Source: Acidimicrobiaceae bacterium (GTDB lineage Bacteria; Actinomycetota; Acidimicrobiia; Acidimicrobiales; Aldehydirespiratoraceae). Taken from it: DNA of 64,000 nt. The notes under the pieces are model-generated. The model was given only the letters and a program-made list of their open reading frames with translations. It searched no databases and was not told where the DNA came from. Below, piece by piece: positions 1,086 through 16,285 of the stretch (position 1 is the stretch's first letter; the number at the start of each line of letters is the position of its first letter). The stretch spans positions 8,565-72,564 of the forward strand of contig JAERSO010000076.1 of NCBI GenBank assembly GCA_016845585.1, given 5' to 3'. The position numbers and the translations under genes were made by a program.

Positions 1086-2527
1086 TGGCGGCACCGACCG
1101 ACTTCCTGGGTCTGCTCGACGGCTCCGACTCGGTCATCCATGTGGATGGGGCAACGCTGTCGGCTCGCGACCTGGTTCGGTGGGGTACCTCGGCCGCAGC
1201 CCACCTACGCGCGTCAGGGCTGGTGGCCGGGGATCGAGTGGCGGTGTGGATGGCGAACAGTGAGCGCTACCTCGTCGCCCTGGCCGCCTGCGCGGCGGGC
1301 GGATACGTGGCCGTGTCGATCAACACGCGGTACGGCGAGGCCGAAGCCGCCGATCTCATCACCCGATCCGGGGCGGAGCTCACCGTCGTCGATCACACGA
1401 CGCCGGCTGACCCCCCGGGCCCGACGGTGGCGGCGCAGGAGCTCCTCGACACCGTCCGGTCACCCGAGGCCCCGGTCGGCGCGTCCGGTGACCACTTCGT
1501 CGTCTTCACCACCTCGGGCACGACGAGCAAGCCGAAGATGGTGGTGCACGAGCAGCGATCGATCGCCGTTCACGCGCACGACATGGCGAAGGGTGCTGAG
1601 ATCCGAGCCGACGACGTGGTCCTCGTCGCCATGCCCCTCTGCGGGGTCTTCGGTCTCTGCACGTTCACCAGTGCGCTGGCCGCGGGAAGCACCATCGTCA
1701 TGCCGACCGGGTTCGATGTCGCCCGCACGGCCGACCTGATCACCGATCACCACGTCACGATCACCCATGGAAGCGATGACATGTTCCACCGGCTCCTCGG
1801 GCACGGGGCGGACCTGCGCTCACTGCGCTTCGCCGGGTACGGCCGGTTCAACACCAGCCTCGACGGGATCGTGGATCGGGCCGAGGCCGCGGGCGCGCGT
1901 CTCACCGGCCTCTACGGAATGAGCGAGGTGCAGGCGCTCTTCACGATTCGCGACCACCGCCTTCCCACCGAGGAGCGGGGCCTGGCCGGTGGCACCGTGA
2001 CGTCCCTTGACGCCGACGCCCGTATCGTCGACGGCGAACTCCAACTCCGCGGCCCCAGTCTGTTCGCCGGCTATCTGGCCGAGGGCGGAGCCGAGGTCGA
2101 CGATGCCTTGACCGCCGACAACTTCGACGACGGCTGGTTCCGTACCGGCGACCTCGCCGCGCAGGATGCTGCCACGCCACGCGAGTTCACCTATCTGACT
2201 CGTATGGGAGACGTGCTTCGCCTCGGCGGATTCCTGGTGGCTCCCGCCGAGATCGAGGCGGCGCTCATGGAGGTCGACGGAGTCGTGGAGGCCCAGGTCG
2301 TGGCCGTCGATCGCCCGAACGGTGCTCGACCCGTTGCCTTCGTGATCAGTGACCGGGGCGAGATCGACGAAGCAGCCGCCATCGCCCACTGCGGCGAGCA
2401 CCTCGCCCGCTACAAGGTTCCGATCGCCGTACTGACCATCGATCGCTTCCCGACGACGCCGAGCGCAAACGGCACGAAGATCCAGCGAGTCAAGCTGCGA
2501 GAGATCGCCGAGATCGCCCTGCGGTGA
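1085..2527 (+). CDS. AMP-dependent synthetase/ligase (acyl-CoA synthetase family)
   Basis: 480-aa ORF with AMP-binding motif FTTSGTTSKPKMVVH, WFRTGDLA, and a C-terminal NGTKIQR lysine motif. Confidence 0.85.
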   Translation: MAAPTDFLGLLDGSDSVIHVDGATLSARDLVRWGTSAAAHLRASGLVAGDRVAVWMANSERYLVALAACAAGGYVAVSINTRYGEAEAADLITRSGAELTVVDHTTPADPPGPTVAAQELLDTVRSPEAPVGASGDHFVVFTTSGTTSKPKMVVHEQRSIAVHAHDMAKGAEIRADDVVLVAMPLCGVFGLCTFTSALAAGSTIVMPTGFDVARTADLITDHHVTITHGSDDMFHRLLGHGADLRSLRFAGYGRFNTSLDGIVDRAEAAGARLTGLYGMSEVQALFTIRDHRLPTEERGLAGGTVTSLDADARIVDGELQLRGPSLFAGYLAEGGAEVDDALTADNFDDGWFRTGDLAAQDAATPREFTYLTRMGDVLRLGGFLVAPAEIEAALMEVDGVVEAQVVAVDRPNGARPVAFVISDRGEIDEAAAIAHCGEHLARYKVPIAVLTIDRFPTTPSANGTKIQRVKLREIAEIALR

Positions 2528-3518: not shown

Positions 3519-4493
3519 CTAGGAGGTGGCGTCGAGGCGCTTCCCGTTCTCGGTGAGGTTGATGTCCCACAGAACTTTGTCGAGTGCGTCGCTCGCGGCG
3601 ATCGACGAGTAGCGCAGAGGCGATTCCGGGGTGACCGTCGACGCCATCGGCGTGAGGATCGTCCACGGCGTGGGATGGGCGAACTGGACGACCGAGTAAC
3701 GATCGCCCTGCTGACCCTCACCGGACACCACCCGGTGGATGCCCGACGGAATCACTCCGTTGCTCAAACGTTCGAGCATCAGACCTGTGTTGATGATGGC
3801 CCGGTTCTCGGGCGGCGCGGCGTCGAGCCATCCGTCCTCGGTCTTAACCTGCAGGCCGGCCGCGGTGGCTCGGGGCAAGGCGGTGATCAGGTTGATGTCG
3901 GCGTGCTCGCCCGCCCAGACGTGTTGCTCGCCCGGCGCCTGCTCCATCGCCGGATAATGGATCGCGCGAGTGAGGGTGGCGCCGTCGACGAGCATCTCGT
4001 CGAAGAAGCTCTCGTGAGCGCCGAGACCTTCGGCAATGATTCGCAGCACACGCGTCTGGAGATCGGCGACTCGCTCGTGGAAGTGCAGGAGCAGGTCGTG
4101 CACGCCGGGCAGATCGGCCTCGGGGAGCGCCGGCGGCCCGTATCGATGCGGATAGCGGTCACGCAACGGGTGGCCCTGCCCGAGCGGCATGCCCCAGTTG
4201 AGCATCTCCTTCCAGTCGGGCACATCGGCGATCGCTGCTGTCTCGACCAGCAGGCCGGTGTAGCCCGTCTGCCCGTGGGAACCCGCGACGATATAGGCGT
4301 CCTTGTTCTCCTGGGGAAGCGTGAAGAAGGCTTCGAGTTGACCGTAGACCTCATCGATCATGCCGACTTCCATGTCGTGCTCGACGTAGACGAAACCGGT
4401 CACCAGGCTGCGGCTCACACCGTCGACCACGGCCCGCCGTTCGGCGGTCGATCCGTTCTCGAAGGCGAGCAGGTCGACGTCAAGGATCTCCAT
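3519..4493 (-). CDS. 2-oxoglutarate/Fe(II)-dependent oxygenase (isopenicillin-N-synthase-like)
   Basis: 324-aa ORF with an HxD iron ligand pair (GEHADINLIT), a distal His (SGIHRVV) and an RxS (DRYSVVQF), arranged as in 2OG oxygenases. Confidence 0.8.
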   Translation of the reverse strand: MEILDVDLLAFENGSTAERRAVVDGVSRSLVTGFVYVEHDMEVGMIDEVYGQLEAFFTLPQENKDAYIVAGSHGQTGYTGLLVETAAIADVPDWKEMLNWGMPLGQGHPLRDRYPHRYGPPALPEADLPGVHDLLLHFHERVADLQTRVLRIIAEGLGAHESFFDEMLVDGATLTRAIHYPAMEQAPGEQHVWAGEHADINLITALPRATAAGLQVKTEDGWLDAAPPENRAIINTGLMLERLSNGVIPSGIHRVVSGEGQQGDRYSVVQFAHPTPWTILTPMASTVTPESPLRYSSIAASDALDKVLWDINLTENGKRLDATS

Positions 4494-4539
4494 GGCGAAA
4501 CGCTAGCGCTTCCTGTCCGGGGGATGACAGGCTCGGAAG

Positions 4540-4908
4540 GTGACCGATTCGGGCAGGTACCACGAACGCGGACCCATCCCCCAGCGGTATCTGACCGCCA
4601 AGGGGCGAGCCGGGCGACTCGAGTACAACGTCATCAACATCGGCTCGCTGGCGCTCATGATCGTGGGTGTCGGGGTCATCGACAACTCTGGACTTCCTGC
4701 ACCGTTCGCCTGGTTCACGGCGATGTTCGCCGCGGCCGGCTACGTCGGCATCTGCGCGACAGCGCGCCGATGCCACGACTTCAACCGGTCACTGGCACAT
4801 CTCACACCGGCCGGCGTCCCCGGCGAACGAAACCCGTGGAACTTCCGAATGCTGGCGTTCTCCGAAGGCGACCCCCGTCCCAACGACTACGGCCCACCTG
4901 CCACCTGA
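4540..4908 (+). CDS. DUF805-like small membrane protein
   Basis: 122 aa with GRAGRLEY near the N-terminus, two hydrophobic helices and an ARRCHDFNRS motif (DUF805-type RRLHD). Confidence 0.55.
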   Translation: MTDSGRYHERGPIPQRYLTAKGRAGRLEYNVINIGSLALMIVGVGVIDNSGLPAPFAWFTAMFAAAGYVGICATARRCHDFNRSLAHLTPAGVPGERNPWNFRMLAFSEGDPRPNDYGPPAT

Positions 4909-5059
4909 CTTGTCCACAGGGTGCTGTGCAAATTACAAGGTTGCGAGGAACGGGGTGATGACACGGTCTGTGACTGCGTCGCCACGGCCACGCAGAGCGC
5001 GAACTGGGGCATGCGCGCCCTGAAAACACAACGAAACCGAAGAACCCTGAAATCACCCC

Positions 5060-5089
5060 TTGACGCCGGTGTAATTACGCGGCTGTAAT
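5060..5089 (+). promoter_or_regulatory. candidate nrdAB promoter (TTGACG - 18 nt - TGTAAT)
   Basis: AT-rich hexamers at 5060-5065 and 5084-5089, about 110 nt upstream of the nrdA start. These are the only sigma70-like pair I see in the 290-nt intergenic region. Confidence 0.35.
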
Positions 5090-5094
5090 TGCAA

Positions 5095-5118
5095 GTCCCA
5101 TCCCTCGCGGGATGGGAC
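5095..5118 (+). promoter_or_regulatory. perfect 10-bp inverted repeat/hairpin at the predicted 5' end of the nrdA mRNA
   Basis: GTCCCATCCC-tcgc-GGGATGGGAC, starting about 6 nt after the putative -10. Confidence 0.4.
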
Positions 5119-5198
5119 GGGGCGATTGTGGAGTCGAGAGCGACGCCCCCGGAGTGCATTGCTCCACCTGGTGATCTCGACGCGGAAGAGGGCCCTTC

Positions 5199-7673
5199 AT
5201 GGCAATTATCGAGGACCGCCTGGCAGCGGTCGACAACAGTGCAACGGCGGTGGAAACCGCCACGAGCATGCGAGTGCGAAAGCGCAACGGCAGTCTCGAG
5301 CCGGTCGACGTCAACAAGATCGTGAACGCGGTCGCCCGGGCCAGCGAGGGCCTGCTCGGCGTCGATCCGATGGTCGTTTCGACCCGCACCATCGCCGCAC
5401 TGGCCGACGGCGCCACCACCCAGGAACTCGACGAGCTGTCGATCCGCACCGCAGCAGGCCTCATCGTCGAGGAGCCGGCGTATTCGAAACTCGCCGCCCG
5501 CATGTTGTCCACCTACATCGACAAGGAAGTTCGCAACCAGAACGCCCCCTGGTTCTCGGAGTCCGTCTCGCTCGGCCACCAGCTTGGGATCATCGGTGAC
5601 GAAGTCCTGAACTTCGTCAACGCCAACGCACCCACGCTCAACGCCGCCATCAACTCCCAGCGCGACAAGAACTTCGAGTTCTTCGGTCTGCGCACCGTGT
5701 ACGACCGCTATCTGCTGCGCCACCCCGAAACTCGCCAGGTCATCGAGACGCCGCAGTACTTCTTCCTTCGCGTCGCCTGTGGCCTCTCCACCAACGCCGA
5801 CGAGGCCATCAAGTTCTACGACCTGATGTCGTCGCTGGCCTACCTCCCGTCCTCGCCGACGCTGTTCAACTCGGGCACCACCCATCCGCAGATGTCCAGC
5901 TGCTACCTGCTGGACTCCCCCGAGGACTCCCTCGAGGGCATCTACAAGCGCTACACCGACATCGCACGCCTGTCGAAGTTCGCCGGCGGCATCGGCGTCG
6001 CCTGGCACCGGATCCGCTCCAAGAACAGCCTGATCGTCGGCACCAACGGCTTGTCCAACGGCATCGTCCCGTGGCTCAAGACGCTCGACGCCTCCGTGGC
6101 CGCCGTCAACCAGGGTGGCCGCCGCAAGGGCGCCGCCTGCGTGTACCTCGAGTCGTGGCACGCCGACATCGAGCAGTTCCTCGAGCTGCGCGACAACACC
6201 GGCGACCACGCCCGCCGTACCCACAACATCAACCTCGCCAACTGGATCCCCGACCTGTTCATGGAACGCGTCGAGAAGGACTGGCAGTGGAGCCTCTTCG
6301 ACCCGAAGAAGGTCCCTGAGCTCATCGACACCTACGGCGACGAGTTCCGCGCCATCTACGAGCAGGCCGAGGCCGACGGCATCTACGAGAAGCAGGTCCC
6401 CGCCCGCCAGCTCTATCAGCGCATGATGAAGTCGCTGGCCGAGACCGGCAACGGCTGGATGACCTTCAAGGACAGCTCGAACCTGAAGTGCAACCAGACC
6501 GGCCCCGGCGAAGCCGGCGACAACAAGAACAACCGCGACCGAGTCGTGCACCTCTCCAACCTCTGCACCGAGATCCTCGAGGTCACCAGCCAGACCGAGA
6601 CCGCGGTGTGCAACCTCGGTTCGGTCAACCTCGGTGAGTTCGTCGAGACCTCCGAGGGCGTCACCGCCGTCGACTACGCCAAGCTCGGCAAGGTCGTGCG
6701 CCAGGTCGTGCCGTTCCTCGATCGGGTAATCGACATCAACTACTACCCCACCGACGAAGCCGCCGTCTCCAACGACCGCTGGCGCCCCGTTGGCCTTGGT
6801 CTGATGGGTCTGCAGGACGTCTTCTTCAAGCTGGGCGTGCCGTTCGACTCACCGGTAGCCCGCGAGGTCAGTCGTCGCATCTCCGAGGAGATCTACTTCA
6901 ACGCCCTGTGGGCCTCGACCGAGCTCGCCGAGGCCAACGGTCCGCACGCGGCGTTCAAGGAGACCCGGGCGGCGTCCGGTGACCTCCAGTTCGATCTGTG
7001 GGACGTGGAGCCGAGCGACGCCGAGCGTTGGGCCCCCCTGCGTGAGCGCATCGAGAAGCACGGTCTGCGCAACTCGCTCATGATCGCCATCGCCCCCACC
7101 GCCACGATCGCTTCGATCGCCGGCTGCTACGAGTGCATCGAGCCGCAGGTGTCCAACCTGTTCAAGCGCGAGACCCTCTCGGGCGAGTTCATGCAGATCA
7201 ACCGCTACCTGGTGAAGGAACTCCAGAGCAGGGGCTTGTGGGACGCCCAGATGATCGCCGACGTGAAGAAGTCCGAGGGTTCGATCCAGGACATCGATCG
7301 CATCCCCGACGATCTCAAGGCCGTCTACCGCACCGCCTGGGAGATTCCGATGAAGTCCCTGATCGAGATGGGTGCCGATCGTGGCGCCTTCATCGATCAG
7401 AGCCAGTCGCTCAACCTCTTCATGGAGTCGCCCACCATCGGCAAGCTCTCGTCGATGTACATGTACGCCTGGAAGGCCGGTCTCAAGACCACGTACTACC
7501 TGCGCAGTCGTCCGGCCACTCGCATCAACAAGACCACGTCCGGCCCCGCGCCAACCACGCCTGGTCCCGCCCCTGACGGTCCTGGCGGCGGTCAACCCAC
7601 CAAGACGTTCACCGACGAAGAGGCCCTGGCCTGCTCACTGGAGAACCCGGAGCACTGCGAGGCGTGCGACTGA
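5199..7673 (+). CDS. nrdA: ribonucleoside-diphosphate reductase alpha subunit, class Ia type with N-terminal ATP-cone
   Basis: 824-aa ORF. ATP-cone MRVRKRNGSLEPVDVNKIV, conserved NLCTEI and catalytic-Cys regions, and a C-terminal Cys pair ...EHCEACD. AAGAGGG Shine-Dalgarno lies 6 nt before ATG 5199; the alternative start ATG 5268 sits directly at the ATP-cone. Confidence 0.95.
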   Translation: MAIIEDRLAAVDNSATAVETATSMRVRKRNGSLEPVDVNKIVNAVARASEGLLGVDPMVVSTRTIAALADGATTQELDELSIRTAAGLIVEEPAYSKLAARMLSTYIDKEVRNQNAPWFSESVSLGHQLGIIGDEVLNFVNANAPTLNAAINSQRDKNFEFFGLRTVYDRYLLRHPETRQVIETPQYFFLRVACGLSTNADEAIKFYDLMSSLAYLPSSPTLFNSGTTHPQMSSCYLLDSPEDSLEGIYKRYTDIARLSKFAGGIGVAWHRIRSKNSLIVGTNGLSNGIVPWLKTLDASVAAVNQGGRRKGAACVYLESWHADIEQFLELRDNTGDHARRTHNINLANWIPDLFMERVEKDWQWSLFDPKKVPELIDTYGDEFRAIYEQAEADGIYEKQVPARQLYQRMMKSLAETGNGWMTFKDSSNLKCNQTGPGEAGDNKNNRDRVVHLSNLCTEILEVTSQTETAVCNLGSVNLGEFVETSEGVTAVDYAKLGKVVRQVVPFLDRVIDINYYPTDEAAVSNDRWRPVGLGLMGLQDVFFKLGVPFDSPVAREVSRRISEEIYFNALWASTELAEANGPHAAFKETRAASGDLQFDLWDVEPSDAERWAPLRERIEKHGLRNSLMIAIAPTATIASIAGCYECIEPQVSNLFKRETLSGEFMQINRYLVKELQSRGLWDAQMIADVKKSEGSIQDIDRIPDDLKAVYRTAWEIPMKSLIEMGADRGAFIDQSQSLNLFMESPTIGKLSSMYMYAWKAGLKTTYYLRSRPATRINKTTSGPAPTTPGPAPDGPGGGQPTKTFTDEEALACSLENPEHCEACD

Positions 7674-8873: not shown

Positions 8874-9395
8874 TTAGAGCCAGCGGCGGACCTTGGCGCA
8901 GTACTGCTCGTAGATCACACCGAGCTTCGACGCTAACATCCGCTCCTCGGGTCGGATCTGGACGCGAGTCATGATCGCCACGAAGAAGACCTCACCGACG
9001 ATGAGGCCCAGAATCGAGCCCAGACCCAACGAAAACGCCGCGATGAGGAGGGCCATCCCGAGATACATCGGGTTGCGGGTGAACCGGTATGGACCGGTGG
9101 AGACAAACGCCGATGCGGACTCGATGTCGTGGGGGTTGACCGTCGTGGACGCGGCACGAAAGGCGATGACGCCGGACACCATGACGCCGACACCTGCGAC
9201 TCCCGCGAGGGCGGCGACGAGATCGCCCCGACCATCACTGAGCCATGACACATCGAGATCGAGCGTGGCGATGAGCCAGGAGACCAGTCCGCCCGCGACC
9301 ATCCAGACGAGAGGGGGAACCGTTGTTTCGAGTCGCCGCATGTTGTCGGCGAGACTACGGACCAACCGGCGGGGACCCAACCAGCGCGCGGTCAC
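8874..9395 (-). CDS. isoprenylcysteine carboxyl / phospholipid methyltransferase (ICMT/PEMT) family membrane protein
   Basis: 173 aa and multi-pass hydrophobic. Has GPYRFTRNPMYLG (RxxRNPMYxG) and a C-terminal EERMLxxxxGxxYxxYxxxVRRW pattern. Confidence 0.75.
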   Translation of the reverse strand: MTARWLGPRRLVRSLADNMRRLETTVPPLVWMVAGGLVSWLIATLDLDVSWLSDGRGDLVAALAGVAGVGVMVSGVIAFRAASTTVNPHDIESASAFVSTGPYRFTRNPMYLGMALLIAAFSLGLGSILGLIVGEVFFVAIMTRVQIRPEERMLASKLGVIYEQYCAKVRRWL

Positions 9396-9440
9396 CGCTC
9401 AGCCGATCAATCAACCGGTCGAGGGTCAAATCCTGACTGG

Positions 9441-10439
9441 TCAGTAGCCGCGGACGCCGTGGTAGGGCAGGCCGGCAGCCTTCGCTTCGGTATAGAGCAC
9501 CATGAAGTTCTCGCCGAAGGGGTCCTTGCCCTGCAATGGCAGAATCGCCCGGCGGATCGTCCAGTCATGAGGCGCCAGTTCGCCCGCACGGTCATAGTTG
9601 CGGGACGCACCTGCCTCGTCGCCGCGGTGGCGAAGCTCGTTGGCGATCCGGAAATGGAGACGGGCGACCTCCTCCTCGGGGCTGAGGTCACCGACCGCGG
9701 CACGGATCTCATCACCGGAGAGCTCCGTCGTCCCCGACCGAACCCAGTCACGAATCCGATCGTGCTGACGGTTCGAGTCGATACCCGTGAACTCGCGATA
9801 CGCGTCGGTACCGGCCGCGCTCCAGTTCGGGTGCACGATGCGGTCGTTCTCGTCGATCATCACGACGGTGGGGACGTTGGAGATCGCATAGAGCTCGGTG
9901 ACGAGATGATCGGCGTCCATCAGAACCGGAAAGTCGATGCCTTCCGCGAACCCGCGGATCGCCTCGGTATTGTCGTCGATGGCAACGGCGATCACCTGGA
10001 AGTCGGTGTGACCTTCGGCGTGGAGTTCGTTCTGCAGTGCCTGCCACCCGGGCAGGTCATACGCGCAACCTCACCAACTGGAGAAGGCAACGAGAAGTCG
10101 TTTCTTGCTCCGGTGATCCGAGAGCGCCGCGGGTCCACCGTCGAGACTCGGCAGCGAGAAATCGGGCGCGACCAGGTCGACGAGCGCCGATCGGCGTCGG
10201 GCGCGCGGCGCACCGATGGCGGTGAGACCGCTCTCGTCGCTGACGACCGGGCGATCCAGCAGGCCGGCGCTGGCGACGAGATCGAGCGCCGACTCCTCAC
10301 CGAGGGCGCCGCTGTCGCGGACAGGGACGCAGACGTCGTCCTGGCACAACCCTTCCGGCTCCAGCGTCCATCCGAGCAGCTCCGGCAGCTGATCTGCCGA
10401 CGCGGTCGGGGACTCGAGCAGGATCAGATCGGTTTCCAT
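9441..10439 (-). CDS. TlpA/ResA-like thioredoxin-fold protein with one in-frame TGA at the redox position (candidate selenoprotein, otherwise a nonsense pseudogene)
   Basis: ORFs 10071..10439 and 9441..9995 are in the same frame. The full read is ...KKRLLVAFSSW-TGA-GCAYDLPGWQALQNELHAEGHTDFQ-VIAVAIDD...ISNVPTVVMIDENDRIV (cis-Pro region). TGA at 10071-10073 is the only stop in 333 codons. Confidence 0.55.
10032..10064 (-). promoter_or_regulatory. candidate bacterial SECIS hairpin downstream of the in-frame UGA
   Basis: mRNA reads UGA GGUUGCGCGUAUGA CCUGCC-CGGGU-GGCAGG CACUGCAG. It has a 6-bp GC stem and a 5-nt apical loop containing GGU, with 20 nt between the UGA and the loop. A bulged lower helix (GCG/UGC) is possible. 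Confidence 0.3.
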
Positions 10440-10451
10440 CCGGGTGGTCTA

Positions 10452-11951
10452 TCAGTCGTTGCGGGGAAAGCCCAGATCGACCGAGGAGCTGGCGGGATCG
10501 GGCCAACGACTCGTGATGGCTTGTGCCTTCGTGTAGAAGCGAATGCCTTCGGGACCATACATGTGGGTGTCGCCGAACAGCGAGTCCTTCCAACCACCGA
10601 ACGAGTGGTAGCCGACCGGCACCGGGATCGGGACGTTGACACCGACCATGCCGACCGGAGCGTCTTCGCAGAACTGGCGGGCCGCGCCACCATCTCGGGT
10701 GAAGATGGCGGTGCCGTTGCCGAACGGGTTGTTGTTCAGCAGATCCAGGGCCTCGCCATACGTGTCGACGCGTACGACGGCGAGCACCGGGCCGAACACC
10801 TCGTCCTTGTAGACGTCCATGTCGGGCGTGACGTTGTCGATCAACGAGCAACCCAGGAAGAAGCCGTCGTTGTCGAACTCCGTCTCGCGACCGTCGAGCA
10901 CGAGCGTGGCACCTGCGTCGGCGGCGCCACCGACGTAGCCCGCCACCCGGTCACGATGTTCGCGGGTGATGAGGGCCCCCATCTCGGCGTCCGGGTCATC
11001 ACCGGCGCCGATCTTGAGCTTGGTCGTGCGATCGGCGATCGCCTCGATCAGCGGATCGGCGACGTCACCCACGGCAACGGCGACCGAGATCGCCATGCAG
11101 CGCTCACCGGCCGAGCCGTAGGCGGCGGAGACCGCAGCGTCGGCGGCGAGGCCGATGTCAGCATCGGGAAGCACCAGCATGTGGTTCTTGGCGCCGCCGA
11201 GGGCCTGGACGCGCTTGCCATTGGTCGTGGCGGTCTGGTGGATGTAGCGGGCGATGGGTGTGGAACCGACGAAGCTGACGGCGGCGATGTCGCGGTGTTC
11301 GAGGATGGCATCAACCGCCACCTTGTCGCCGTTGATGACCTGGAACACACCCGGAGGGAAACCGGCCTCGCTCATGAGTTCGGCCATCATCAGTGCGACG
11401 GTGGGATCCTTCTCGCTGGGCTTCAGAATGAAGCAGTTGCCGGTGGCGATCGCGTTCGGGATCATCCACAGCGGCACCATGGCCGGGAAGTTGAACGGGG
11501 TGATGCCGGCCACGACGCCGAGCGGGCGGCGCACCGTGGTGACGTCGATCCCGGTGGCGACCTGGTTGGAGTGACCACCCCGGAGCAGTTCGCCGATGTT
11601 GCAGGCGTACTCGATGTTGTCGAGGCCGCGGGCGACCTCACCCAGTGCATCGGAGTGAACCTTGCCGTGCTCGGCGGAGACCGCAGCCGCGAGCGCATCG
11701 GCGTTCTCGTCGACCAGGTTGCGCAGCTTGAACATCAGCTTGGTGCGGGCGGCGATGGAGGACGTGCCCCAGGTTTGGAACGCCTCCTTGGCGATGGCGA
11801 CCGCCTGGTCGACCTCGGCCACCGACGCCAAGGCGACACTGCCGGTCTGCCGGCCGGTGGCCGGGTTGTGGACCACGCCGGTGTTGCCGGAGGTGCCGGC
11901 AACGGCCTGGCCGTTGATGAAGTGTCCGAGTTGGGTGATTTCGCTCATCAT
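10452..11951 (-). CDS. mmsA: CoA-acylating methylmalonate-semialdehyde dehydrogenase
   Basis: 499-aa ALDH-family ORF with FVGSTPIARYI, LGGKNHMLV and the catalytic Cys in GERCMAIS. The length and N-terminus (LGHFINGQ) are typical of MmsA. It lies next to an omega-aminotransferase. Confidence 0.85.
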   Translation of the reverse strand: MMSEITQLGHFINGQAVAGTSGNTGVVHNPATGRQTGSVALASVAEVDQAVAIAKEAFQTWGTSSIAARTKLMFKLRNLVDENADALAAAVSAEHGKVHSDALGEVARGLDNIEYACNIGELLRGGHSNQVATGIDVTTVRRPLGVVAGITPFNFPAMVPLWMIPNAIATGNCFILKPSEKDPTVALMMAELMSEAGFPPGVFQVINGDKVAVDAILEHRDIAAVSFVGSTPIARYIHQTATTNGKRVQALGGAKNHMLVLPDADIGLAADAAVSAAYGSAGERCMAISVAVAVGDVADPLIEAIADRTTKLKIGAGDDPDAEMGALITREHRDRVAGYVGGAADAGATLVLDGRETEFDNDGFFLGCSLIDNVTPDMDVYKDEVFGPVLAVVRVDTYGEALDLLNNNPFGNGTAIFTRDGGAARQFCEDAPVGMVGVNVPIPVPVGYHSFGGWKDSLFGDTHMYGPEGIRFYTKAQAITSRWPDPASSSVDLGFPRND

Positions 11952-11994
11952 TCGTCTCAGTTCTCAGTGTTGCAGGGGGTCAGTCTTCAGGATT

Positions 11995-13287
11995 TCAGTT
12001 GTTCAGATCGGTGATCGCAGCGAGCATCGCCGCGATGGCTTCGTCCATCTCTGCTTCCGACACATTGAGCATCGGCGCGATCCGGATCACATTGCCATAG
12101 AGGCCGCCCTTGCCGACGAGTAGCCCGTGGGCACGACAGGCTTCGAGGAAGTCGGCGGCGCGGCCGGCATCGGCTTCGCTGGAGCCGGGGTGCACGAACT
12201 CGAGGGCTTGCATCAGGCCTTTGCCTCGCAGCTCGGCGATCCACTCGGTGGCTTCGACCGCATCAGCGAGACCCTGCGAGAGCTGCTCGCCGCGAGCGAG
12301 TGCGTTACCCTGCATGTCCTCGTCGACGACGGCTTGGAGCGTCGCGTTGCCGGCCGCAGCCGAGAGCGGGTTGCCACCGAAGGTGGAGAACGACGTGACC
12401 TTGATCGTGTCCATGATCTCGGCTCGGGCGACGACGCCGGCAAGTGCCGTGCCGTTGCCGACGCCCTTGGCGAAGGTGAGCATGTCGGGCACGGTGTCGT
12501 GTGCTTGGTAGCCCCAGAAGTGTTCGCCGGTGCGTCCCCAGCCGGTCTGGACCTCATCGGAGATCAGCAGGATGCCTTTGGCATCGAGTTCCTTCTTGAA
12601 GGCACCGAAGAAGCCGTCGGGCGGGGTGGCGAAGCCGCCGACGCCCTGGATCGGCTCGGCGATCAGGCAGGCAACGTCGCCCGCCGACATCATGTCGAGC
12701 ATCTGGGCGAGGTCGTCGACGCAGGCCTGGGTGAAGGCGGCGTCGTCGAGATCGCGGAACGGACTGCGGAGCCGGTAGCCGCCCTGCACGAAGTTCACGT
12801 CGAGGCCCGAGATCGAGGTCGAGGACCACGAGCTGTGCGAGGTGATCGCCTGCGTGGTGAACGAGCGTCCGTGGTAGCTGTTGCGCATCGCCAGTACCTG
12901 ATTGGACTTGCGGTAGCTGGTGGCCAGGAGCAGGGCCGTGTCGTTCGCCTCCGAGCCGGAGGCGGTGAAGAACACGCGTGCGTCCGGGATTCCCGAAAGA
13001 CCGGTGATTCGCTCGGCCAGCTCGATCATCGGCTCATTGAGATACAGCGTCGACGTGTGCATGACCTTGGCGGCCTGTTGCTGCACCGCGGCGGTGACTT
13101 TCGGATGGTTGTGCCCGATCATCGTGGTGAGCACGCCACCGAAGAAGTCGAGGTAGCGATCGCCGTCGGCAGTGAACACGTAGCTGCCGTCGCCGTGATC
13201 GATCGAGATCGGCTCGCCGAACATCGGGCTGACGAACGACGGGAGCACCGCGCGATAGCGCGCCAGGAGTTCGGAGTCTGTTGTCAT
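11995..13287 (-). CDS. class-III (omega) aminotransferase; beta-alanine/GABA/3-aminoisobutyrate-type
   Basis: PLP-Lys context DMLTFAKGVGNG and ISDEVQTGWGRTG. ATG 13287 (MTTDSELLARYR...) is preferred over the track's GTG 13320. Confidence 0.85.
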   Translation of the reverse strand: MTTDSELLARYRAVLPSFVSPMFGEPISIDHGDGSYVFTADGDRYLDFFGGVLTTMIGHNHPKVTAAVQQQAAKVMHTSTLYLNEPMIELAERITGLSGIPDARVFFTASGSEANDTALLLATSYRKSNQVLAMRNSYHGRSFTTQAITSHSSWSSTSISGLDVNFVQGGYRLRSPFRDLDDAAFTQACVDDLAQMLDMMSAGDVACLIAEPIQGVGGFATPPDGFFGAFKKELDAKGILLISDEVQTGWGRTGEHFWGYQAHDTVPDMLTFAKGVGNGTALAGVVARAEIMDTIKVTSFSTFGGNPLSAAAGNATLQAVVDEDMQGNALARGEQLSQGLADAVEATEWIAELRGKGLMQALEFVHPGSSEADAGRAADFLEACRAHGLLVGKGGLYGNVIRIAPMLNVSEAEMDEAIAAMLAAITDLNN

Positions 13288-13348
13288 GGCCCAAGTATGT
13301 GTTGCCAACCGATTGCACACAATGCCGTCTTTGTACTACACAAAAGAA

Positions 13349-14716
13349 ATGACCGGCCTGGAGCTCCCTCGACACATCGCGTCACGAGTCGAGGAACGAA
13401 CGGGGCCAGCCGTCGCCGCGGCCATCGGGGGAATGGTGGCCGATGGGTCACTCGACGTGGGTGACCAGCTCCCCACCGTGCGTGCGCTCGCTGCCGAACT
13501 CGGTGTCAGCCCGAGCACCGTGTCAGAGGCCTGGCGGATTCTGCGAGACCACGGCGTCATCGAAACCGATCGACGCCGGGGCACCACGATCCGTCGAGCA
13601 GGGTCAACGGACAACAGCCGCTACTGGCATGTGCCGGTCGAACCCGGCACACTCGCCCTCGACTTGAGCACCGGGACACCCGACCCCCGGCTCCTCCCCG
13701 CCCTCGAAACGGCGCTCGGCAACGTTCACGTCGATGTCGGTGCCCGCAGCTACCTCGACGAGCCCGTCGTGCCCGAGCTCGCCGCGGTGCTGGGAGCCGA
13801 CTGGCCATTTCCGCCGGAGGCGCTGACCGTGGTCGACGGCGCCCAGGACGCACTCGACCGACTGATCGGCGCCATCGTCGGCTTCGGCGACCGCGTCGTC
13901 GTCGAAGATCCCACCTTCCCGCCATTGCTCGACCTGCTCGAGCTCGCCGGCGCATCGGTGATCGGTATCGACCTCGGCGACGAAGGACCGTGTCCCGCTG
14001 CACTCGCGGAGGCCTTGCGCAACGACCCGGTCGCCATCTTCCTGCAGCCCCGCGCTCACAACCCGACCGGGGTGAGCCTCACCGCCGAGCGCGCGGATGC
14101 CATCGCCGACCTCGTTCGTCCGACTGCGGCGCTCGTCATCGAAGACGACCATTCCGGCGCGGTCGCCGGCGCTGACCTTCACAGCATCGGCACCCGGCTC
14201 CCGACACAGACCATCCACATCCGGAGCTTCTCGAAGTCTCACGGCCCTGATCTTCGGCTGGCCGCCGTCGGCGGCGCGTCGGGTCCGATCGACTCGCTCG
14301 TCCGACGTCGCCAACTCGGTCCTTCCTGGACCAGTCGACTCCTGCAACGAGTCCTGCTCGAACTCCTGAGCGATGATCGGGTGCATCGTGACATCGTCGC
14401 CGCCGAGCTCGCCTATGCCGATCGTCGACGCCGCCTCATCACCGCACTTCGAGCGCGTGGCGTCGACATCCCCGCGGTCGGCTCAGGACTGAACCTCTGG
14501 GTGCCTGTCCGCGATGAACGAGACGCCGCGGTCGCGCTCGCCGCCCAGGGAATCGGCGTTGCCCCCGGGAGCCCGTTCGAAGTCGACGACGCCGAATGTC
14601 ACCATGTCCGCGTCACGATCTCGGCGCTCCCAAACAACATCGAGGAACTCGCCGGCGCCCTCGCCCGAACGAGCCTCACCCCACCCCACCGAACTGGCGG
14701 CACATATGGTCGGTAA
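13349..14716 (+). CDS. MocR/GabR-type regulator (GntR HTH fused to an aminotransferase-fold domain)
   Basis: N-terminal wHTH LPTVRALAAELGVSPSTVSEAWRILRDHGVIETDRRRGTTI, followed by a roughly 350-aa class-I aminotransferase-like domain with Lys in SFSKSHGPDLR. Divergent from the aminotransferase gene. The start could be ATG 13322 or 13349. The last ~12 codons lie inside palindromic repeat B. Confidence 0.8.
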   Translation: MTGLELPRHIASRVEERTGPAVAAAIGGMVADGSLDVGDQLPTVRALAAELGVSPSTVSEAWRILRDHGVIETDRRRGTTIRRAGSTDNSRYWHVPVEPGTLALDLSTGTPDPRLLPALETALGNVHVDVGARSYLDEPVVPELAAVLGADWPFPPEALTVVDGAQDALDRLIGAIVGFGDRVVVEDPTFPPLLDLLELAGASVIGIDLGDEGPCPAALAEALRNDPVAIFLQPRAHNPTGVSLTAERADAIADLVRPTAALVIEDDHSGAVAGADLHSIGTRLPTQTIHIRSFSKSHGPDLRLAAVGGASGPIDSLVRRRQLGPSWTSRLLQRVLLELLSDDRVHRDIVAAELAYADRRRRLITALRARGVDIPAVGSGLNLWVPVRDERDAAVALAAQGIGVAPGSPFEVDDAECHHVRVTISALPNNIEELAGALARTSLTPPHRTGGTYGR

Positions 14717-14759: not shown

Positions 14760-16187
14760 CTACCAGTTCGCGGCGATGTACTGGGTTTCGCAGAACTCGA
14801 AGATGCCTTCGTGGGCACCCTCGCGGCCGAGGCCGCTCTGCTTCATGCCGCCGAACGGCGCGGCGGGATCCGACATGGCACCCCGGTTGATGCCGACCAT
14901 GCCGGCGTGAATGCGCTCACCCACCGACATGGCGCGAGCCACATCCCCGGAGAACACATAGCTGGCCAGACCCATCTCCGTGTCGTTGGCCCAATCGATC
15001 ACGGTGTCGGTGTCGGTGAACGGGATCACCGGGGCGACCGGGCCGAAGATCTCCTCCTTGGTGATCGGTGACTCCATCGTCACATCGCCGAGCACCGTCG
15101 GTGCGTAGAAGAAGCCAGGGCCGTCGATCGGCGCCCCGCCAACAGCGGCAGTCGCACCCGCGGCAAGCGCGCCCTGGACCAGACCGTCGATCGTTTCGAT
15201 GGCACCGGCATTGATCATCGGACCACACGTCACCCCCTCTTCGGTGCCGGGTCCAACCTTCATGGCGCCCATTGCAGCAGCCAGGCGGTCGGTGAACTCA
15301 TCCGCCACGCCCGCCTCGACGAACATCCGGTTGGCAGCGGTGCAGACCTCGGCGGAGTGCCGCATCTTGGCGACGATGGCACCCTCCACGGCCGCTTCGA
15401 TGTCAGCGTCGTTGAAGACGATGAACGGGGCGTTGCCGCCCAACTCCATGCCTGTCTTCAGCACTCGGTCGGCGCAGCGTTTGAGCAGGACGCGGCCCAC
15501 CTCGGTCGATCCGGTGAACGACACCATGCGTGTCGCCCGATGCTCGGTGGCGGCGTCGAACCATGAGCCCGACGACTGGGTCGGGACGACGTTGACGAGG
15601 CCCGCCGGTACACCGGCCTCCTCGAGCAGCTCGCCGATGCGAAGGGCGGTGAGCGGCGTTTCCTTCGGCGGTTTGATGACACAAGCATTGCCGGCCGCCA
15701 GGGCCGGTGCCACCTTGCGGGTGATCATCGCCGCGGGGAAGTTCCACGGCGTCACCATCACCACGACGCCGACCGGCGGGTGGTGCACGATGATCTTGTG
15801 CGCCCCACTCGGGGCGGTCTTGATGGTTCCGTCGATCCGAACTGCCTCCTCCGCGTTCCAGCGGAAGAACTCCGCCGCGTACGCGATCTCGCCCTTGGCG
15901 TCAGCAGTCGGCTTCCCGTGCTCGGCGGTGATAAGGCCCGCGAGCTCCTCGGTGTGATCGATCAGGGTCTGCCAGCAGTTGCGCAGCACTTCGCTTCGTA
16001 CCCGCGGCGCGGTGGCGGCCCAGCTGCGCTGAGCGGTGTCGGCCGCGTCGACTGCCGCGGTGGCGTCGGCAGGGGTGCCGGCGGCGACCTCGGCGATCAC
16101 ATCGCCATTGGCCGGATTCAGTACGGCGATCCGGTTCGGATCGCTTCCGTCGAGCCACTTGCCACCGATGAGCATTTGGGTCTGCAT
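14760..16187 (-). CDS. gabD: NAD(P)-dependent succinate-semialdehyde dehydrogenase (ALDH family)
   Basis: ALDH motifs FTGSTEVGRVL, ELGGNAPFIV and Cys in AEVCTAANR. ATG 16187 (MQTQMLIGGKW) is preceded by AGGGGGA. The context is a MocR regulator plus an aminotransferase. Confidence 0.75.
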   Translation of the reverse strand: MQTQMLIGGKWLDGSDPNRIAVLNPANGDVIAEVAAGTPADATAAVDAADTAQRSWAATAPRVRSEVLRNCWQTLIDHTEELAGLITAEHGKPTADAKGEIAYAAEFFRWNAEEAVRIDGTIKTAPSGAHKIIVHHPPVGVVVMVTPWNFPAAMITRKVAPALAAGNACVIKPPKETPLTALRIGELLEEAGVPAGLVNVVPTQSSGSWFDAATEHRATRMVSFTGSTEVGRVLLKRCADRVLKTGMELGGNAPFIVFNDADIEAAVEGAIVAKMRHSAEVCTAANRMFVEAGVADEFTDRLAAAMGAMKVGPGTEEGVTCGPMINAGAIETIDGLVQGALAAGATAAVGGAPIDGPGFFYAPTVLGDVTMESPITKEEIFGPVAPVIPFTDTDTVIDWANDTEMGLASYVFSGDVARAMSVGERIHAGMVGINRGAMSDPAAPFGGMKQSGLGREGAHEGIFEFCETQYIAANW

Positions 16188-16285
16188 TGATCCCCCTGGG
16201 AGTCCGTCGCGGTGGACGAATCCTCGCACTGACAATCAGAGCCGACAACCCGGCGATCGGATTCTTTCGGTTCCGAACGATCAGA

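Follow-up and report, generated by a model that had tools for sequence, protein, structure and literature searches.

Is a TGA in the middle of a redoxin gene a stop, or is it read as selenocysteine (Sec)? The question arises on the minus strand of a 64,000-nt stretch of contig JAERSO010000076.1 from an Acidimicrobiaceae bacterium (GCA_016845585.1). We call the whole of this stretch, which is 66% G+C, the window, and all coordinates refer to it. The list of open reading frames (ORFs) cuts the redoxin gene in two, giving one piece at 10071..10439 (122 aa) and another at 9441..9995 (184 aa, GTG start). A reading made from the sequence alone had taken both for parts of one TlpA/ResA-like redoxin and proposed it as a candidate selenoprotein. 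Our comparative analysis points the same way. TGA 10073-10071 very probably encodes Sec in a single-gene ResA/TlpA-like redoxin, and we put the probability of this at roughly 0.92. The features on which the argument turns are these:

9441..10439, minus strand: complete predicted selenoprotein coding sequence, with ATG 10439-10437, Sec-TGA 10073-10071 and terminal TGA 9443-9441; both halves are homologous to one family of ~350 aa.
10071..10073, minus strand: in-frame TGA, the predicted Sec codon (residue 123, position 1 of the U-G-C redox motif), aligned with an invariant Cys.
10065..10076, minus strand: W-U-G-C active-site motif (Trp122, Sec123, Gly124, Cys125), from the frame translation and alignments.

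One gene with a TGA at the redox cysteine

From 10439 down to 9441 the minus strand forms a single frame of 332 codons plus a terminal stop, and its sole internal stop is the TGA at 10073-10071, where the residues read ...KKRLLVAFSSW-TGA-GCAYDLPGWQALQNELH... We used the fused window protein, with U replaced by C, as the query in a homologue search. It returned about 900 homologues, and the best 120 are mostly full-length proteins of 345-370 aa, with 51-57% identity and 93-99% query cover. Alignments of 19 and of 58 full-length homologues place the TGA column at the first Cys of an invariant W-C-G-C motif, which is the N-terminal redox Cys where the sequence-only reading had put it. The fused protein also matches Redoxin (PF08534, 44.2 bits) and AhpC-TSA (PF00578, 44.1 bits) in Pfam. 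The three nearest database relatives, 82-89% identical, are present only as C-terminal pieces of 184-185 aa, and their contigs carry the identical split into ~122 aa and ~184 aa. When the DNA of the nearest relatives is aligned, the TGA is shared, with synonymous differences on either side, and the 25 codons from the TGA to the start of the second ORF (GCAYDLPGWQALQNELH...) are kept in frame at the protein level.

Gene callers and RefSeq treat these halves as two separate genes: the first would encode 122 aa and stop at the TGA, and the second, a "TlpA family" protein of 184 aa, would begin at GTG 9995. In Salinilacustrithrix flava (L048, NZ_CP133888.1, 5935-6930) RefSeq has the gene as WP_432427129.1 (124 aa) and WP_432427709.1 (201 aa), and in Ilumatobacter sp. 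(L044, NZ_OZ244049.1, 5905-6999) it has the downstream piece as WP_420452590.1 (191 aa). However, neither piece is a complete thioredoxin fold, as had been said of both halves from the sequence alone, and the Cys forms are continuous single proteins. The 25 codons from the TGA to the GTG stay in frame as protein sequence, and the downstream start itself is not conserved, lying at +42 in S. flava only and at +23 in the others. Two genes would also leave unexplained the nucleotide-level constraint on TGA carriers described below. We consider this arrangement very unlikely.

We then examined the codon at this site in a scan of one genome per GTDB species, taking the 80 loci most similar to the window protein. 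Leaving aside one truncated contig that could not be scored, 75 of 79 loci have TGA and 4 have TGC or TGT. Because the loci were those closest to the window protein, this ratio describes that neighbourhood of the family and not the family as a whole; outside it, Cys forms dominate. Nearly all of the 80 loci come from Acidimicrobiales, Ilumatobacter or Microthrix metagenome-assembled genomes (MAGs), and one comes from a cultured isolate, S. flava EGI L10123. The TGA form was found in several metagenome contigs as well, and it is retained in proteins merely 53-56% identical to the window protein. Four of the MAGs (L040, L047, L055 and L078) are labelled Azotimanducaceae, Gammaproteobacteria or Burkholderiales, yet carry typical Acidimicrobiia versions of the redoxin gene. 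The RNR genes beside the redoxin in L055 are 88% identical to those of the window. These four contigs are probably mis-binned.

We built a neighbour-joining tree of 151 members, 78 of them Sec and 73 Cys forms, with the Cys sampling biased towards relatives of homologue P0004. It needs only two changes between the Sec and Cys states. Sec forms are paraphyletic to Cys forms in this tree, which makes the TGA state an old one. Two clades, of 71 and 2 sequences, take in all the sampled Cys forms, and the midpoint root is reconstructed as Sec.

These data bear on two simpler accounts of the TGA. A nonsense mutation that left a pseudogene, or a base-call error in the window assembly, would require a single change, since TGA is one base away from TGC or TGT. 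But 75 species genomes, each assembled independently, have the TGA, and so do independent assemblies at read level, which effectively refutes both. In one of the latter, L006, the aligned 57 nt after the TGA match the window exactly, and there is purifying selection on either side of the codon. We regard either accident as extremely improbable. A reassigned genetic code is excluded too, since 5 of the 10 Pfam-confirmed genes near the locus, the redoxin gene among them, end in TGA, which is therefore an ordinary stop there.

A hairpin constrained in TGA carriers

Bacterial Sec codons are read with the help of a Sec insertion sequence (SECIS), and a candidate lies just downstream of this UGA:

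10040..10056, minus strand: SECIS-type hairpin CCUGCC-CGGGU-GGCAGG, the RNAalifold consensus of 74 sequences.

Its stem begins 14 nt past the UGA and its loop 20 nt past, and it has a 6-bp stem and a 5-nt loop. We gave RNAalifold 74 distinct TGA-form sequences, each the TGA plus 63 nt, and the consensus contains one element only, this stem and loop at columns 18-34. The five inner pairs are the same in every sequence. The pair at the base covaries: it is C-G in 44 sequences, U-G in 16, U-A in 7 and A-U in 1, and it is broken in 6. The sequence-only reading had described the hairpin correctly, together with a possible bulged lower helix, and this second part did not survive. Most pairs of the lower helix are broken over the 74 sequences and shuffled controls do equally well or better; in that region the one pair that is mostly preserved is G16-C35, across a one-base bulge.

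The loop (10046-10050, alignment columns 24-28) comes in two versions, CGGGU (from CCC+GGG) and AGGUU (from CCA+GGT), in which columns 24 and 27 switch jointly from C..G to A..U. Folded alone, the hairpin has a minimum free energy (MFE) of -9.3 kcal/mol in the CGGGU version and -8.6 kcal/mol in the AGGUU version. The latter folds as an A-U-closed GGU triloop, fitting the N1-G-G-N-N2 pattern of the bacterial SECIS (bSECIS) model. That model calls for a loop of 3-9 nt, a stem of 4-16 bp, a G in the first two loop positions, 16-37 nt between UGA and loop, and an MFE of -7.5 kcal/mol or lower (PMC13188914). The hairpin falls within every one of these bounds, with a 5-nt loop, a stem of 5-6 bp, a G at loop position 2 followed by another G, 20-nt spacing, and the energies just given. 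There is no second copy of the 15-nt core motif in the window and none elsewhere in 1.3 Mb of related loci.

Several observations weigh against a Sec codon at this site, and we bring them together here. In a 67-nt context the hairpin is no stabler than shuffled sequence (z = +0.54); because in-context fold-energy z-scores are not significant at 66% G+C, we relied on comparative evidence. The support from covariation amounts to one pair, since the hairpin is short and five of its six pairs never vary. The stem is partly forced by the peptide L-P-G-W-Q, through CUG/CAG (Leu/Gln) and CCN/UGG (Pro/Trp), and the five pairs are also kept in 44 of 67 Cys forms. An Rfam scan of window 9300-10600 gave no matching family, just chance miRNA-type and viral matches, which was expected; to our knowledge, Rfam holds no general bacterial SECIS model. 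ARAGORN found no tRNA-Sec in the window or in 86 fetched loci, which are redoxin neighbourhoods only, and tblastn with E. coli queries found no homologue of SelA, SelB or SelD in 1.34 Mb made up of the window and the fetched neighbourhoods. As this 1.34 Mb covers only the surroundings of the redoxin gene, these negatives say little about the genomes. Taken by itself, the TGA junction is neither significant nor remarkable. A mechanical scan of the window finds about 200 in-frame TGAs flanked on each side by 60 or more open codons, and such junctions were dropped as a detector of further candidates because so many chance cases make them too noisy. What makes TGA 10073-10071 non-random is its two-sided homology to one family, its alignment to an invariant Cys and its conservation across species.

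Since the peptide dictates part of the stem, we compared codon usage in TGA and Cys forms. The TGA set holds 78 distinct rows (76 for counts of spellings and cores), and the Cys set holds 67 distinct sequences, from 4 genome loci and 63 metagenome contigs; positions are counted from the TGA. At Leu+6 the codon is CTG in 78/78 TGA forms versus 44/67 Cys forms. Other nearby Leu positions in the TGA forms use 5-6 codons (1.4-1.7 bits). Gln+10 is CAG in 78/78 TGA forms, and Gln+13 is CAA in 32 and CAG in 29. Pro+7 and Gly+8 are perfectly linked in the TGA forms and are spelled only CCC-GGG (46) or CCA-GGT (32), whereas Cys forms use three Pro and four Gly codons. The whole L-P-G-W-Q peptide has 2 spellings in 76 distinct TGA forms against 23 in 67 Cys forms, and the Sec-type core CUGCC-NGGKU-GGCAG is found in 76/76 TGA forms against 3/67 Cys forms. 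The constraint therefore acts at the nucleotide level and is specific to TGA carriers. By comparison, Gly+1 uses all four codons in both sets. At Gly+1 and Cys+2 codon choice is free, so selection there acts on the protein. From this pattern and the agreement with the bSECIS model, we infer that the hairpin is a bacterial SECIS. Both checks proposed with the sequence-only reading, the fit to such a model and the conservation of codon and hairpin among orthologues, bore it out.

The redoxin, its proposed decoding and its neighbours

Sec insertion needs dedicated machinery. For Actinomarinales, which also belong to the class Acidimicrobiia, a 2026 preprint reports selA, selB, selC and selD in every one of 84 complete genomes (bioRxiv 10.64898/2026.04.03.716425). 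Its presence in this sister order lends indirect support to Sec decoding in the class. It would be hard to explain how the TGA and a dedicated hairpin are maintained in 75 species that had no decoding system. A side observation from the ARAGORN search concerns one of the probably mis-binned contigs, L047, where positions 1818-1907 (minus strand) were called as a tRNA-Asn (GTT) of 90 nt whose anticodon lies at position 31. A tRNA-Asn is rarely so long, and this one may be an artefact or a gene containing an intron or an extra arm.

The UGA could also be recoded by something other than the canonical Sec route. A tRNA-Sec-like tRNA would then insert Cys or another residue, or the hairpin would stimulate near-cognate read-through. 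SelB-dependent tRNAs charged with Cys have been described, and the Sec machinery was not seen in the window or the fetched redoxin neighbourhoods. However, the codon sits at the redox Cys position of a thioredoxin fold, a classic Sec/Cys pair, the hairpin conforms to the SelB-type SECIS model, proteins of this type are already catalogued as selenoproteins, and the sister order has the full machinery. Moreover, insertion of Cys needs only a TGC codon, at no cost. We give such recoding a slight chance. The chance is equally slight that the TGA-form Acidimicrobiales genomes lack canonical selA, selB, selC and selD altogether, and that the hairpin drives recoding through a non-canonical tRNA, another factor or a non-Sec residue.

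If the codon is read as Sec, the product has three domains:

10176..10439, minus strand: N-terminal domain, ~88-90 residues, with an invariant C-x4-C (Cys32, Cys37; nt 10329-10346), from the alignment and AlphaFold.
9831..10169, minus strand: thioredoxin-fold redoxin domain (residues 91-203) with cis-Pro loop S-N-V-P-T (Pro190, nt 9870-9872), from Pfam and the ResA match of the P0001 model.
9444..9767, minus strand: C-terminal all-helical domain (residues ~225-332, ~110 residues), from AlphaFold helices and many invariant columns.

We modelled the structure with AlphaFold, using a Cys homologue 56% identical to the window protein (P0001) and the window's own 122-aa N-terminal piece. The P0001 model is confident (pLDDT 92.5, pTM 0.90). 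In a Foldseek search its central domain matches B. subtilis ResA (2h1b) with E = 3e-10, a target TM of 0.72, an rmsd of 2.0 A and 29% identity; the TlpA-type matches of the model are 2h1b, 1su9 and 4nmu, with E values of about 1e-10. The cis-Pro motif S-N-V-P is invariant in the alignment of 58 homologues. So is the N-terminal C-x4-C, as G-L-C-x4-C-V-P. The model of the 122-aa piece has a pLDDT of 83.8, and a fold search with the N-terminal domain gave no PDB match (best E = 0.75). The C-x4-C may be a second redox or metal site. In a milder novel reading, its domain may form a new intramolecular redox relay with the U-G-C centre. The C-terminal part has a weak TPR_2 match (E = 0.023). On the Kyte-Doolittle scale the highest mean over 19 residues is 0.96, and the average for the first 30 residues is -0.05. 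The protein has no hydrophobic membrane segment and is therefore predicted to be cytoplasmic, unlike ResA and TlpA.

A mechanism can be proposed by analogy with known bacterial systems. The ribosome would pause at the UGA (10073-10071), and the hairpin CUGCC/N-G-G-K-U/GGCAG, 14 nt further on, would act as a bacterial SECIS and recruit SelB with GTP and Sec-tRNA(Sec). Sec would be inserted in place of release, yielding a soluble three-domain redox protein of 332 residues in which U-G-C replaces C-x-x-C where helix 1 starts, facing the cis-Pro loop. Judging from the fold and the motif, Sec123 would be the nucleophile that attacks a substrate disulfide or a peroxide/sulfenate, and Cys125 would resolve the intermediate as a selenenylsulfide. 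The fold suggests a cytoplasmic thiol/selenol-disulfide oxidoreductase or a peroxidase. SelB-dependent insertion, the chemistry and the substrate are each put forward on these grounds.

Upstream, the redoxin gene follows mmsA:

10440..10454, minus strand: mmsA stop TGA 10454-10452 and a 12-nt spacer to the redoxin ATG (10439-10437), read from the sequence.

The sequence-only reading had placed the gene inside an aminotransferase-mmsA operon, 12 nt after the mmsA stop. The gap is correct, but the setting is limited to the closest species. The order aminotransferase, mmsA, redoxin, PEMT, RNR is common to only about a dozen of them; the closest genome relative (L007, redoxin 84% identical) has a different aldehyde dehydrogenase upstream, and Cys-form loci have unrelated neighbour genes. 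We therefore give the mmsA adjacency no functional meaning, and an operon link to mmsA and the aminotransferase as a feature of the family was rejected as lineage-specific. In the window and several related species, a cassette of a MocR-type regulator, a class-III aminotransferase and mmsA (10452-14716) lies upstream of the redoxin. L007 has no such cassette at 4170-6000; there, the redoxin is preceded by a 108-aa ORF and by the other aldehyde dehydrogenase, which shares 93% identity with window 14760-16235, so the cassette looks like it was inserted or deleted. On the opposite strand, an antisense frame at 9459-12014 (plus) stays open for 851 codons across the redoxin and mmsA genes. This is typical at 66% G+C, and ORF length alone is accordingly no evidence in this window.

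Annotation and relation to known systems

A RefSeq family with a "UGC" motif, mentioned tentatively in the sequence-only reading, does exist. It is NF041054.1 (WAxxUGC_long, "ResA-like WAxxUGC motif-containing protein"), an NCBIfam equivalog model of 354 positions with a curated cut-off of 300 bits. No other NCBIfam model matches the window protein as well (E = 1.8e-55), but the score of 188.6 bits falls short of that cut-off, as do the 189-218 bits of seven other Sec and Cys forms of the clade. By NCBI's own criterion, the clade is a relative of NF041054 and not a member. The alignment runs from profile position 2 to 202 with the window protein and from 7 to 316 with the S. flava protein, covering the N-terminal extension and the redoxin domain. 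The two share the position of U-G-C, a similar length and an N-terminal extension before the redoxin domain. They differ in motif, which is W-A-x-x-U-G-C in NF041054 and F-S-S-W-U-G-C in the clade, with only U-G-C in common. The nearest curated selenoprotein model does not rescue the clade, since RefSeq leaves the NF041054 name unused here and still splits the gene into two proteins.

Reading the TGA as Sec would correct a systematic annotation error: throughout this order of Actinomycetota, which is abundant in water and soil, RefSeq and the gene calls made on metagenomes split the gene. The CUGCC-NGGKU-GGCAG hairpin would serve as a clade-specific SECIS pattern for finding other selenoprotein genes in Acidimicrobiia. 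S. flava EGI L10123 is a cultured carrier with a complete genome, in which Sec insertion and the unusual U-x-C chemistry are directly testable. No new class of biology is opened, and a specialist would not be surprised; the value lies in the annotation, the SECIS template and the isolate.

The E. coli fdhF SECIS is the archetype of the bacterial SECIS model. Like it, the hairpin here lies within the coding sequence just 3' of the UGA, with a small apical loop containing G-G/U and a spacing in the range of the model. It is much shorter, at 5-6 bp, it has no conserved lower helix, and SelB would bind it by analogy.

Among protein families, the ResA/TlpA oxidoreductases resemble the window protein in the TlpA-like thioredoxin fold of the central domain and the conserved cis-Pro loop. 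They carry C-x-x-C, whereas the motif here is U-G-C (C-G-C in the Cys forms), one residue shorter. They have a membrane anchor and act outside the cytoplasm, whereas the window protein has no hydrophobic segment and has two additional domains of ~90 and ~110 residues.

UGC-type Prx/TlpA-like selenoproteins have been catalogued since 2005-2008 (PMC1088965, PMC2398784, PMC13188914). The Sargasso Sea survey had already included a U-x-C Prx-like selenoprotein in its count (PMC1088965), and the GOS survey lists 46 Sec and 855 Cys sequences under the family name "Prx-like (UGC-containing)" (PMC2398784). The clade is likened to this family by description, not by sequence comparison (a published example is MDE0950781.1), and on that basis the two share a thioredoxin fold matching AhpC-TSA (PF00578), a single Sec in U-G-C and many Cys homologues. 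The gene is a real, unannotated instance of this catalogued UGC type, widespread in Acidimicrobiales. The accounts of the Prx-like family cited here give no domain architecture, taxon or SECIS for it, whereas here the protein belongs to Acidimicrobiales, has three domains and is accompanied by a defined hairpin.

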